DNA of 64,000 bases. Origin: Escherichia coli. Lineage in GTDB: Bacteria > Pseudomonadota > Gammaproteobacteria > Enterobacterales > Enterobacteriaceae. The notes under the pieces are model-generated. The model was not told the origin of the DNA. It saw nothing but the letters and a program-made list of their open reading frames with translations, and made no database searches. Position numbers and translations under genes: made by a program. This document shows positions 51,538 through 59,743 of the stretch, in pieces. The stretch is taken from NCBI RefSeq assembly GCF_013122565.1, contig NZ_CP053258.1. The stretch is one strand, 5' to 3'. The first letter of the stretch is position 1, and every line of letters begins with the position of its first letter.

Positions 51538-51613
51538 GGCCCTTTAGCTCAGTGGTTAGAGCAGACGACTCATAATCGTCCGGTCGCTGGTTCAAGTCCA
51601 GCAAGGGCCACCA
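51538..51613 (+). tRNA. ileY: tRNA-Ile2 (anticodon CAU, lysidine-modified)
   Basis: GGCCCTTTAGCTCAGTGGTTAGAGCAGACGACTCATAATCGTCCGGTCGCTGGTTCAAGTCCAGCAAGGGCCACCA; anticodon loop CTCATAA. Confidence 0.9.
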
Positions 51614-52369
51614 AATCATTTTTCACGTATCAGGAAGAGTTAAGGGTACAAAGGGTACTCGATGGCGGTCTATATTTCACGATTAACGCCATTTCAAGGA
51701 AGAAGTGCGGTGGGTGGTTTCGAATGAGGGCTGGTGTTTTGGTACGTGGCACGCCACTGCAATGTATTTATCCATCAGTACTCATTCAAAAGTACCTGGA
51801 AAAAATGCCCGCTATGCCAAGCGGGCAAATTGCTTACATGTGGAATTAAGTAATTAACGATAAAGCCAGAGTATTATCATTTATTATACCCCTTCATTTA
51901 ATCAGGTTAATTACTCAAATCACTGAACTATTCTCTGTTCGCTTACTGATGATAAGTGAAGTGTCACAACCACGATTTGTATGTTGACCAATGCCGTAGA
52001 GTAAGGATGAAATGTCTCTGCCACGCCTTAAACATCTACTACTGACCAGAACACCCGCCGCAGGTAGATGAGTTTTGTGAGCGTTACAGGAGTCTGGCTT
52101 TGCTCATTAATCAACGCTATTTAGATATAAATTTCTAACACTCGAAAAACGATTTTCACTAATAAATTATAACGGGTGGTTTTTATCATACAGCGAAATA
52201 ACCTTTTGTTTATTAAATTTAACATTCCTGTGCTAATTTAATTAAAAGTTCCATGCGTAGCAAGTGAAGAAGTTAATGTCAGCAATTGTCTCAAATGAGC
52301 GATTTTTTATAGTGACAAACAGTAATAACGTTAAAAATAGCCATGAAGACATTAACTGAGGAATAGACA

Positions 52370-53704
52370 ATGTTAGTTAGTAAAAGCAACGAATTTAACA
52401 CTAGCGCAGTTTTGGCTAGCAGGAATTATAATGAAAACAATTCTTCCAACCCCATGGGGCTACTAGCTTATAGTATTTTAAATTTAATTTGTAAGGAAGC
52501 TGCATCAGAGACGTATCGCGGTGCTCTTGAAACTTTACAAAAAATGATGTCTGAATGTATATATCAAGAAGGCAACGCCTTTGTCATTATGGGAGCTGGA
52601 GAACAATTAAAACGTATTAAATATGATGTTGATGAAAATAACTTAAAGGTATTCAACGTACACTTTAATAATAATGAAGAGTTAGTTACTGATGGTGAGC
52701 CTGACGTAGTATGTTTAAGCAAGCAGGAGTGGGAAAATCTTCTCATTAAACTAAAGCTGGAGAACAAAGAAAATGCGGTTTCTGAAACTGACCTGTCATC
52801 GAATAAAAATAAAGTTGATCAGTATATTGAATGCGCTAAGAGAAATGAACAGGCCCTTTTCGATAATATAATAAAAAGTGATTTTCATGTTGCTTCACTT
52901 CAGCCAGGTAGAACGCGTAGTGTTATTTTAGAAACGCCGCAAAATATCTGTATGGAATCACGTAATTCATATGAAAACAAAATAGATGAGATTTCATCTT
53001 TGTCAGAGTCAAAGGAACACCCCATAGATATTCAAGAAAAAACAGATGCGTTTGTGAAGAAGTTCAAGGGCATATTATTTGATAAAAATGGAAGGTCTTC
53101 AGAGCTTCTGTTTAATTTTTATGAGTGTTGCTATAAGTTTTTACCAAGAGCTCAGCCTCAAGATAAAATCGATAGCTATAATTCAACACTGCAAGCTTTT
53201 TCCATTTTTCGTTCATCTACGTTGACACATAATGATGTAGGGTTTAATTTCAAATTATTTCCAGAAGTCAAACTGTGTGGGGAAAATCTTGAAACGGTAT
53301 TCAAATATAAAAATGGCGATGATGTCCGGGAGATAGCCAAAATTAACATTACTCTCCAAAAAGAAGAGGGTGGTTTATATAATTTACGTGGATTGGATTT
53401 TAAGGGGTGCTTCTTTTCTGGACAGAACTTCAGTAACTATGATATTCAATATGTGAACTGGGGAACGTCATTGTTTGATGTTGATACTCCGTGTATTTTT
53501 AATTCGTCTGCTAACAATGAGAGTTATGAAAAATCATTAAAACCTGTGAGCGAAAACGGTTTAAATGGAGTCTTATCTGATCGTAATAAAAAAATAAAAC
53601 TCATCACGGGTGTGGCACCATTCGATGATATTTTATTTATGGATGATGACTTTGATGATAACTCCCCTGAGGATGAGCCCGTTGAGAATAGTCCCGTTGT
53701 ATAA
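52370..53704 (+). CDS. hypothetical low-GC protein with a short pentapeptide-repeat-like segment and acidic C-terminal tail
   Basis: 444 aa with Asn/Lys-rich codon usage in a strongly AT-rich island next to tRNA ileY; GAGGAA Shine-Dalgarno upstream; segment NLRGLDFKGCFFSGQNFSNYDIQYVNWGTSLFDVD; C-terminal FDDILFMDDDFDDNSPEDEP. Occupies the position of K-12 ypjC/ypjB as I recall it. Confidence 0.6.
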   Translation: MLVSKSNEFNTSAVLASRNYNENNSSNPMGLLAYSILNLICKEAASETYRGALETLQKMMSECIYQEGNAFVIMGAGEQLKRIKYDVDENNLKVFNVHFNNNEELVTDGEPDVVCLSKQEWENLLIKLKLENKENAVSETDLSSNKNKVDQYIECAKRNEQALFDNIIKSDFHVASLQPGRTRSVILETPQNICMESRNSYENKIDEISSLSESKEHPIDIQEKTDAFVKKFKGILFDKNGRSSELLFNFYECCYKFLPRAQPQDKIDSYNSTLQAFSIFRSSTLTHNDVGFNFKLFPEVKLCGENLETVFKYKNGDDVREIAKINITLQKEEGGLYNLRGLDFKGCFFSGQNFSNYDIQYVNWGTSLFDVDTPCIFNSSANNESYEKSLKPVSENGLNGVLSDRNKKIKLITGVAPFDDILFMDDDFDDNSPEDEPVENSPVV

Positions 53705-54001
53705 AGTCCCAAAAGCAGTTTTCAATGATAAATAAATGGCAATTTTTACAAAGAGATAATAACGTAGATTGAAACGATATGTATTATTGATTGAGTAAAC
53801 GGGATTATTCTTCACACTACATCCATTTTGCTGTCACTACCAAAGTAAAAGGGGCTACGCTTTCACGTAACCCCTTGATTTATTTGATGTGTTGGCGGTG
53901 TCTGAACTGGTGCTGTAATTGGTTGAAATATTTCATCTAATGTCTGGTTCAACTTTCCTTAGCTGCCTGAAAGTTTTCTGATCTTACCCAGCAATAACAG
54001 C

Positions 54002-54064
54002 GTTACGGTGCACCACGCCTGACTGAAGAACTGCGTGCTCAGGGTTACCACTTCAACGTAAAAC
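54002..54064 (+). mobile_element. IS3-family transposase (OrfB) fragment
   Basis: Translates to [21 protein letters not shown], matching the start of IS3-type OrfB as I recall it, then diverges; no inverted repeats or complete ORF. Confidence 0.55.
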
Positions 54065-59220: not shown

Positions 59221-59229
59221 CCATCAACG

Positions 59230-59254
59230 AAAAAGCCCACATCTGTGGGCTTTC
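59230..59254. terminator. bidirectional stem-loop between ypjA and ssrA
   Basis: aaaaa-gcccaca-tc-tgtgggc-ttt: a GC stem flanked by an A-run on one side and a T-run on the other. Confidence 0.55.
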
Positions 59255-59380
59255 ATGTTACCAGGAGCCGCGGCTCCTTTGCGTATCCTTTTTTGTCTCC
59301 TCACCGTCTGGTCGGTGTCCTGCTGAGACTGCTAACTTCCTGTTTTTGTTGGTGTTGTCCTTACACCGTCCAATCATGAT

Positions 59381-59743
59381 TGGTGGAGCTGGCGGGAGTT
59401 GAACCCGCGTCCGAAATTCCTACATCCTCGGTACTACATGCTTAGTCAGTCTTTACATTCGCTTGCCAGCTGCGGACGGACACGCCACTAACAAACTAGC
59501 CTGATTAAGTTTTAACGCTTCAACCCCAGGCAGGGCTTCCACGCGATCTCTTTTGGGTTTGACCTCTCTTGATCCCCGTCCTAAGAGCGGAGGCTAGGGA
59601 GAGAGGGCTCTAAGCAGGTTATTAAGCTGCTAAAGCGTAGTTTTCGTCGTTTGCGACTATTTTTTGCGGCTTTTTACGAGGCCAACCGCCCCTCGGCATG
59701 CACCTTGGGTTTCGCAAATCCCGTCGAATCCAGAATCAGCCCC
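59381..59743 (-). ncRNA. ssrA: tmRNA (transfer-messenger RNA)
   Basis: Minus strand begins GGGGCTGATTCTGGATTCGACGGGATTTGCGAAACCC and ends ...GGTTCAACTCCCGCCAGCTCCACCA; contains the tag-encoding region and tRNA-Ala-like ends; full length 363 nt. Confidence 0.95.

Follow-up and report, generated by a model that had tools for sequence, protein, structure and literature searches.

The tmRNA gene ssrA is a textbook tDNA integration hotspot, and CP4-57 has been known to reside at ssrA of Escherichia coli K-12 since the 1990s; Williams's 2003 'Traffic at the tmRNA gene' is cited in the work on tDNA-integrated islands by Hudson, Lau and Williams. Elements with a tyrosine integrase, among them the P4-like CP4-57 of K-12, insert into the last ~15–35 nt of ssrA. 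In occupied strains the element provides a substitute ssrA 3′ end and displaces the original end together with its flank. The general mechanism of tDNA integration has been described (PMC4383910). According to the MG1655 annotation, the 22-kb cryptic prophage CP4-57 (intA to ypjF) and psaA, a 14-nt pseudo-ssrA fragment, lie between ssrA and ypjA of K-12, and this agrees with the original prediction that the prophage separates the two genes there. Excision of CP4-57 in K-12 yields ssrA ΔT357 and an inactive tmRNA, the scar being defined as CGCCAGC-CCACCA (PMC10107115).

Here we analysed a 64,000-nt stretch of E. coli DNA (contig NZ_CP053258.1; hereafter the window), for which the original prediction proposed the prophage-free state of this hotspot next to an older, decayed island reaching from the tRNA gene ileY to ssrA. 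We conclude, with a probability of about 0.9, that the window represents an E. coli chromosome with an intact, unoccupied ssrA attachment site (attB) beside a separate, now immobile 10.6-kb accessory block.

An intact and unoccupied attachment site

The features on which the proposal was built, namely ileY, the 444-aa open reading frame (ORF), the IS3 and Pin fragments, the 1529-aa ypjA and ssrA, were all found where it had placed them (Table 1). The ssrA gene was identical to that of K-12 at 363 of 363 positions, and its neighbours in the window were smpB, ratA, yfjF, bamE and recN.

Table 1 Features of the accessory block and the ssrA attachment site (window coordinates)
Feature	Coordinates	Strand	Basis
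Strain-variable accessory block, 10,641 bp (ygaQ, ileY, ypjCB, IS3′, pinH′, ypjA)	48589–59229	.	Alignment with Nissle 1917 and APEC O18
ygaQ, alpha-amylase-like, intact, 750 aa	48726–50978	-	ORF; Pfam Alpha-amylase_C and Alpha-amylase, both weak; RefSeq orthologue
ileY, tRNA-Ile2, anticodon CAU	51538–51613	+	ARAGORN; Rfam tRNA, 73.7 bits; RefSeq orthologue tRNA-Ile
ypjCB, full-length, 444 aa, unknown function	52370–53704	+	NCBIfam NF050179; Pfam DUF5507 and DUF5508
IS3 insF internal fragment, ~90 nt	53981–54075	+	BLASTP to K-12 InsF; DNA alignment; Pfam HTH_21, E 5e-4
pinH′, serine DNA invertase fragment (Pin/Hin/Gin type), ~140 nt	54092–54232	+	Pfam Resolvase, E 1.1e-6, profile 55–103 of 145
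ypjA (ehaD), AIDA-I-type autotransporter adhesin, 1529 aa	54631–59220	+	Domains; TIGR01414; RefSeq 'adhesin-like autotransporter YpjA/EhaD'
GC-rich hairpin followed by a U-run (AAAGCCCACAGAUGUGGGCUUUUU)	59230–59253	-	MFE and centroid folds of 59215–59385(-), z = -3.0
Conserved chromosomal flank 3′ of ssrA, attB right arm	59230–59380	.	Matches K-12 sequence directly after psaA at attR
attB core, ssrA 3′ end (ACTCCCGCCAGCTCCACCA)	59381–59399	-	Single copy, T357 present; compared with K-12 attL and attR
ssrA (tmRNA), intact	59381–59743	-	ARAGORN, tag ANDENYALAA; Rfam RF00023, 295.8 bits, model positions 1–374 (full model)
smpB, backbone gene 5′ of ssrA	59958–60440	-	ORF; RefSeq synteny; 100% aa identity to the SmpB of a relative

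Sequence comparison revealed that the junction at the ssrA 3′ end, in which ...CTCCCGCCAGCTCCACCA is joined to ATCATGATTGG..., corresponds exactly to the left side of K-12 attL followed by the right side of K-12 attR, and the two BLAST pieces of K-12 overlapped solely at positions 59380–59395 of the window. The ypjA stop codon ends at 59220 and ssrA at 59381, which leaves 160 nt between them, matching the predicted ~160 bp; nothing apart from these 160 nt lies between the two genes, in line with the claim that no integrase or phage gene follows ssrA. The ORF list of the window contained no integrase- or phage-type ORF of at least 60 aa next to ssrA, no second copy of the ssrA 3′ core or displaced fragment was found within the window, and the 160-nt flank was free of scars, partial repeats and remnants of an element. 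We also asked whether K-12 shares the ypjA–ssrA adjacency and whether an integrase beside ssrA had been misread; neither was the case, and the claim stood. The locus thus combines a canonical, complete tmRNA gene and an attL-left/attR-right junction with the lack of an adjacent integrase or displaced tDNA, as expected of an unoccupied attB. Judging from its identity with the K-12 core, the site would accept integrase-mediated insertion.

The conserved flank between ssrA and the block also adjoins ssrA in Nissle 1917 and APEC O18, both of which lack ypjA. Its hairpin is kept in these two strains with compensatory changes; a simple terminator pattern scan did not call it on the ssrA strand, and we relied on the fold instead. 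The hairpin is most readily understood as the native intrinsic terminator of ssrA, possibly a bidirectional one that also serves the convergent ypjA. The displacement expected of an occupied strain has not taken place in the window, where ssrA is followed directly by its native 150-nt trailer with the putative terminator hairpin, which abuts the convergent ypjA.

Origin of the empty state

We infer that the empty state of ssrA is ancestral and not secondarily restored. The window reads CGCCAGCTCCACCA with T357 kept, and since excision in K-12 deletes T357, the site is not a CP4-57-type excision scar. This argues against secondary loss, in which excision or deletion would have removed a CP4-57-like or different element that once occupied ssrA in this lineage, making the present site a restored attB, although the argument applies to K-12-type excision: Fels-2-type and CTX-type integrases leave CGCCAGCTCCACCA intact (PMC10107115, Table 1), and a former resident bounded by perfect repeats could have left the site without a trace. 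CP4-57 is indeed excision-competent in K-12 (PMC10107115, citing Wang 2009), and traffic at the site is heavy: more than half of the complete genomes have an occupied ssrA. Against this stand the rarity of the scar and the state of the flank. The exact ΔT junction was matched at 100% in only 13 records, one of which is a laboratory K-12 derivative with the match at ssrA, while the other 12 have no annotated ssrA under the match (KL53, the one inspected, represents the attR of an occupied site); among complete genomes, the ΔT junction thus lies at an annotated ssrA in one laboratory strain only. The scar-free 160-nt flank is, moreover, collinear with Nissle and with K-12 attR. Together, these observations make secondary loss improbable and favour an ancestral empty site.

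A separate accessory block beside ssrA

The alignments of the window with Nissle 1917 and APEC O18 break off after 48588 and resume at 59230, and the comparison thereby yields the exact limits of the variable ygaQ–ileY–ypjCB–ypjA block. Nissle has 333 nt in its place and a glaH–ssrA distance of 682 nt; of 5426 complete E. coli genomes, 3164 have ileY–ypjCB. An island extending from ileY to ssrA, as originally drawn, does not fit these limits, as the block includes ileY and ygaQ but not the final 150 nt preceding ssrA. GC content was 0.365 for 48589–54000 and 0.426 for the whole block, compared with 0.522 for positions 1–48000 of the window; the drop, to 0.29–0.41, starts at ~48.3 kb and stops at ~53.9 kb. 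The description of the ileY-to-ssrA interval as strongly AT-rich therefore holds for 48.3–53.9 kb only, because the drop sets in 3 kb before ileY is reached, and ypjA, with a GC content of 0.49, is not strongly AT-rich. Codon usage was atypical, as predicted, with 12–24 AUA codons per 1000 in ygaQ, ypjCB and ypjA versus 3.0 per 1000 in backbone ORFs.

The gene ygaQ shows this composition clearly (GC 0.38, GC3 0.30, 24 AUA per 1000 codons), as does ypjCB with a GC content of 0.348; dN/dS of ypjCB was 0.67. The YpjCB protein belongs to the NF050179 family (928.6 bits, above the cutoff of 650, covering model positions 1–460 of 465) and is confined to E. coli: an exhaustive phmmer search gave no match beyond the E. 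coli family and fragments of it, and a peptide scan of genome contigs for the block in other species hit nothing but two very short contigs that resemble E. coli, belonging to a Planococcaceae MAG and to an Arthrobacter assembly, and are probably contamination. A sequence search of the PDB gave no match to YpjCB, and a single-sequence structure prediction was unusable (mean pLDDT 33). The insF fragment matches residues 62–83 of K-12 InsF at 20 of 22 amino acids (E 4e-12) with ~90% nucleotide identity; pinH′, syntenic with the K-12 pinH pseudogene, shares 74.5% amino acid identity over 47 aa with the Fels-2 DNA invertase. YpjA carries 12 AIDA repeats, a Pertactin domain (1060–1182) and an Autotransporter beta-domain (1268–1507), and its repeat-rich beta-helical passenger, pertactin-like autochaperone region and C-terminal beta-barrel identify it as an AIDA-I-type (type Va) autotransporter. 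The word 'decayed' accordingly suits the IS3 and Pin scraps but not ygaQ, ypjCB, ypjA and ileY, all of which are intact, more so than in K-12.

Several of these properties recall a classical tDNA island that entered at ileY or ssrA by site-specific recombination. The 3′ ends of both genes point into the interval, the left half of which is atypical in composition; recombinase and IS fragments are present, and the region is present or absent depending on the strain. Of the hallmarks of such islands, the block shows atypical composition and presence/absence polymorphism, but it has no integrase gene of its own, and it is not flanked by a tDNA on one side and a directly repeated copy of the tDNA 3′ end on the other. 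The limits at 48589 and 59229 enclose ileY and ygaQ and exclude the 150-nt ssrA flank, and no target-site duplication was found at them. A search of the window for relic att sites, as repeats of the ssrA or ileY 3′ ends (up to 3 mismatches, blastn-short), gave just chance-level 8–13-mers. No tyrosine integrase was found in the block, the 47-aa serine-invertase piece being its sole recombinase trace, accompanied by the 22-aa IS3 fragment. We consider entry as a tDNA island very unlikely. The block is rather an accessory region carried by some E. coli and absent in others, with a compositionally foreign left half and mobile-element debris; lacking its own integrase and att repeats, it is now immobile.

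tRNA-Ile2 (CAU) decodes AUA after lysidine modification, and ileX, known from K-12, is another gene for it. Here ileY lies inside the block and not at its edge, and so travels with it; its 3′ end occurs only once in the window, and an Rfam E-value scan of 50.9–54.7 kb returned nothing but the tRNA. As a tentative idea, which we think is rather doubtful, ileY might be cargo: the block would bring along a tRNA-Ile2 of its own for decoding the frequent AUA codons of its genes. The tRNA matches K-12 ileY at 72 of 76 positions, and because the differences include compensatory changes in the anticodon stem, it appears to be kept functional by selection. In strains without the block, for example Nissle with no ileY at the locus, other tRNA-Ile2 genes, ileX for instance, would have to do this work.

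Frequency of the empty site

Of 5426 complete E. coli genomes, junction-specific queries identified 1388 with the same adjacency of ypjA, 160 nt and ssrA as the window. The arrangement is real but ordinary, roughly one in four of these genomes sharing it. A count of 2579 genomes obtained with a 9.5-kb query was dropped as an empty-site count: it takes in occupied genomes such as K-12, because ssrA–smpB makes up just 12% of that query. The recurrence of an identical contiguous junction in these 1388 independently assembled genomes, together with an att repeat of less than 20 nt, leaves a negligible chance that the assembly lost or collapsed a prophage at ssrA, for which nothing specific speaks beyond the fact that att repeats can in principle confuse assemblers. 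In other strains ssrA is a hotspot with at least four different occupants, including CP4-57, an integrase/ParB element, a P2-like prophage and a 43-kb composite; with the attL-left/attR-right junction described above, this bears out the reading of the window as the prophage-free state of an integration hotspot.

Comparison with known systems

The original reading is correct, and it concerns a well-known polymorphism that RefSeq already annotates. The prophage-free arrangement is annotated in more than 1000 RefSeq genomes and has little import beyond correct annotation. Strain 1303 (NZ_CP009166.1) and isolate AB66 (NZ_OZ547461.1) have the same RefSeq-annotated order, glaH–ygaQ–ileY–ypjCB–pin′–ypjA–ssrA–smpB, and the junction of strain 1303 is 99.5–100% identical to that of the window (up to 100% over 300 nt). 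The differences from such empty-locus strains are allelic only; whole-locus identity peaks at 97.2%, mainly because the ypjCB allele of the window is at most 95% identical to that of any complete genome. Nissle 1917 (B2) represents the minimal glaH–ssrA locus, sharing with the window the intact ssrA, the 150-nt flank with its hairpin and the glaH-side backbone up to 48588, but lacking ileY, ygaQ, ypjCB and ypjA.

Compared with the occupied site of K-12, the window has the same ssrA, core sequence and right-hand flank, and the ypjA–pinH–ypjC/B–ileY–ygaQ neighbourhood is 96.5% identical. The 22-kb prophage is inserted in K-12 only, K-12 attR carries deletions (ACTCC-GCCAGC-CCACCA), and in K-12 ypjCB is split into ypjC and ypjB and ygaQ is a pseudogene, whereas both are intact in the window. 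The tDNA-integrated islands defined by Islander (Hudson, Lau and Williams 2015, PMC4383910) use targets of the ssrA type; in the window this target is intact, and by the Islander criteria the window, with neither an integrase nor a displaced tDNA fragment, has no island. Last, the 'regulatory switch' described for prophage excision at ssrA (Mol Microbiol 2022, PMC10107115) concerns the same 14-nt 3′ end, CGCCAGCTCCACCA, but the excised K-12 site lacks T357 and its tmRNA is inactive, whereas the site in the window is wild type. As a clean wild-type attB with T357, the window can serve as a reference for telling naive strains from tmRNA-defective excisants.

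The attachment site at ssrA

The ssrA gene in the window, identical to that of Escherichia coli K-12 at 363 of 363 positions, ends 160 nt from the ypjA stop codon. In line with the original prediction, the two genes are separated in the annotation of K-12 MG1655 by CP4-57, a cryptic prophage of 22 kb that runs from intA to ypjF and ends in the 14-nt pseudo-ssrA fragment psaA; K-12 thus lacks the ssrA-ypjA adjacency. The K-12 attL reads ...CTCCCGCCAGCTCCACCA joined to prophage aaattctcc, and attR reads ...actccgccagcccacca joined to chromosomal atcatgattggacgg. The window junction combines the left part of attL with the right part of attR (...CTCCCGCCAGCTCCACCA joined to atcatgattggacgg), in agreement with the predicted prophage-free state. 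BLAST against K-12 yielded a ypjA-side match ending at 59395 and an ssrA-side match starting at 59380; because these pieces overlap at 59380-59395, only the core, the attB sequence at the ssrA 3′ end, is common to both. A core search found this one copy and no second copy anywhere in the window. On the other side of ssrA lie smpB, ratA, yfjF, bamE and recN, and no integrase gene was found among the ssrA neighbours in the window, as predicted; ileY, the 444-aa ORF, the IS3 and Pin fragments, ypjA and ssrA were likewise all found in place. The junction sequence itself shows the tmRNA attachment site to be empty.

Features of the locus, with fragments and repeats in compared genomes
Feature	Sequence	Position	Strand	Evidence or remark
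ygaQ, alpha-amylase-like, intact 750-aa ORF	window	48726-50978		GC 0.38
ileY, CAT-anticodon tRNA	window	51538-51613	+	ARAGORN, Rfam
ypjCB, full-length 444-aa ORF	window	52370-53704		NCBIfam YpjCB 928.6 bits (cutoff 650), DUF5507 + DUF5508
IS3 insF, internal piece, ~90 nt	window	~53981-54075		20/22 aa, ~90% nt identity to K-12 IS3A
pinH′, serine DNA invertase piece, 47 aa	window	~54092-54232		Pfam Resolvase E 1.1e-6; 74.5% identity to Fels-2 invertase
ypjA, AIDA-type autotransporter, 1529 aa	window	54631-59220		protein-domain profiles
ssrA, full-length tmRNA gene, tag ANDENYALAA	window	59381-59743	-	ARAGORN, Rfam
tRNA-Arg(tcg) call	window	16915-16986	-	ARAGORN; overlaps tRNA-Arg(acg) 16895-16971 (+), serV-argV cluster
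attR ssrA fragment with deletion	K-12 psaA (L002)	24973-24986
attR ssrA fragment with deletion	KL53 (L010)	3501-3561
attR ssrA fragment with deletion	APEC O18 (L005)	44183-44220
188-nt direct repeat, two copies	APEC O18 (L005)	1060-1246 and 44183-44363		90% identical

Wild-type target or excision scar

Because excision of CP4-57 in K-12 removes T357 near the ssrA 3′ end (leaving CGCCAGC-CCACCA) and inactivates tmRNA (PMC10107115), a naive site can meaningfully be distinguished from a scar. T357 is present in the window ssrA, which makes the site a wild-type, probably functional target rather than a K-12-type scar; it is unlikely that an earlier occupant flanked by a perfect repeat was excised leaving no trace. 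A synthetic deltaT357 junction, used as query against 5426 complete genomes, was matched at 100% by just 13 records. One was a laboratory K-12 derivative with the match located at ssrA, and the other 12 had no ssrA annotated beneath the match. In KL53, which we inspected among these 12, the match falls on attR of a P2-like prophage adjoining ypjA, and from this one genome the rest are taken to be attR copies likewise.

In each of three different occupants (Table), the ssrA fragment displaced to attR carries a small deletion within CGCCAGCTCCACCA (deltaT357 or a 5-nt deletion), echoing Table 1 of PMC10107115; excision across such sites would cripple tmRNA.

Integration and termination

Elements inserted by tyrosine integrases bear, within attP, a duplicate of the tDNA 3′ end; recombination of attP with a tRNA or tmRNA gene at its 3′ end regenerates the gene and displaces its original end (PMC4383910). 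A strong hairpin with a U-run lies at 59230-59253, within the conserved backbone flank on the 3′ side of ssrA. With the element absent, pre-tmRNA transcription would run into the native ~150-nt trailer and end at this hairpin, which may double as terminator of the convergent ypjA. Upon a CP4-57-like insertion, the native trailer would be replaced by the element's own terminator, such as that seen in K-12 after attL.

Frequency of the empty state

Occupancy was counted by junction-specific queries requiring a contiguous match in the 5426 complete genomes. A 600-nt query (ypjA 3′ end, flank and ssrA 3′ part) matched 1388 genomes and a 300-nt query (flank and ssrA only) matched 2568; a longer query gave 2579 but also counted occupied sites, and is misleading as an empty-site frequency. 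In the ~1180 genomes matched by the 300-nt query only, the flank joins ssrA with no ypjA 3′ end alongside. Two of them, both B2, were inspected: Nissle 1917 has just 682 nt from glaH to ssrA, and APEC O18 has a 43-kb insert beyond the flank. Genomes matched contiguously by neither query carry other DNA at the ssrA 3′ end; the occupants seen were CP4-57, an integrase/recombinase/ParB element and a P2-like prophage. Breakpoints in sampled matches ranged from the exact ssrA 3′ end to ~45 nt inside ssrA, which fits several integrase classes with different sublocations in the gene. From the junction counts and varied occupants, we conclude that ssrA is a hotspot with the empty state among its ordinary alleles.

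The APEC O18 insert, downstream of ssrA, lies between direct repeats that combine the terminal ~35 nt of ssrA with 150 nt of chromosomal flank. Of the two copies, the one nearer ssrA is similar to the window or K-12-type flank, and the farther one is the flank native to B2 (Nissle-type); the element would seem to carry the flank of another lineage.

The neighbouring variable block

Alignment of Nissle and APEC O18 to the window runs through 48588 and resumes at 59230, which therefore delimits a variable block at 48589-59229 (10,641 bp) containing ygaQ, ileY, ypjCB, IS3′, pinH′ and ypjA; Nissle has 333 unrelated nucleotides in its place. The predicted ileY-to-ssrA island limits gave way to these, since ygaQ lies within the block, ileY is inside it rather than at its edge, and the final 150 nt before ssrA are conserved backbone outside it. 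Strong AT-richness held from ~48.3 kb to 53.9 kb (GC 0.29-0.41; merely ~0.29-0.30 in the 559-nt ygaQ-ileY spacer) but not for ypjA (GC 0.49, near average). Codon profiling supported the suspected atypical usage, with AUA at 12-24 per 1000 codons in three block genes versus 3.0 in backbone ORFs, a 4-8 times enrichment. The "decayed island" shrank to ~230 nt of IS3/Pin mobile-element debris, whose invertase fragment is syntenic with K-12 pinH; ygaQ, ypjCB, ypjA and ileY are all intact. The ileY-ypjCB segment occurs in 3164 of the 5426 genomes. We sought an integrase, tDNA-derived repeats and a target duplication in the block and found none; on these grounds the block does not qualify as a classical tDNA-integrated island.

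The window ileY matches that of K-12 at 72 of 76 positions; among the four differences are changes in the anticodon stem, a compensatory G28A/C42T pair and T43C, which turns a G.T pair into G-C. It is possible, though less likely than not, that ileY is block cargo suiting the AUA-rich codon use of its neighbours. Elsewhere in the window, the tRNA-Arg(tcg) call is probably an antisense false positive.

Source lineage and comparison with K-12

The 24-kb core stretch 20000-44000 (nrdE-proV-emrB-gabP region) has a best identity of merely 97.9% among the 5426 genomes, and the source lineage is therefore poorly represented there. Over the window as a whole, identity to K-12 is mosaic (99-99.8% at smpB-ratA, 95-97% around glaH). 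The ypjCB allele is rare, with at most 95% nucleotide identity to any of these genomes, and the exact protein was found on a single NCBI contig and in a single SRA assembly. At 0.67, the dN/dS of ypjCB exceeds that of ypjA (0.15) and recN (0.03); values for its neighbours span 0.03-0.17. No YpjCB homologue outside the E. coli family was found among 1.84 billion representatives; the protein is an orphan confined to E. coli, for which neither a remote homologue nor a solved structure was detected, and its single-sequence AlphaFold model was unusable. Copies at 84-86% identity on short contigs of a Planococcaceae MAG (DEQI01000374.1) and Arthrobacter agilis (NODE_38, coverage 0.59) most likely stem from E. 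coli DNA that contaminated the two assemblies.

The block is better preserved than in K-12, where ypjCB is broken into ypjC and ypjB and ygaQ is annotated as a pseudogene, whereas both are whole in the window. RefSeq genomes show the same arrangement, annotated gene by gene, and the site's biology is already in the literature. The empty ssrA site is a known polymorphism, correctly recognised.
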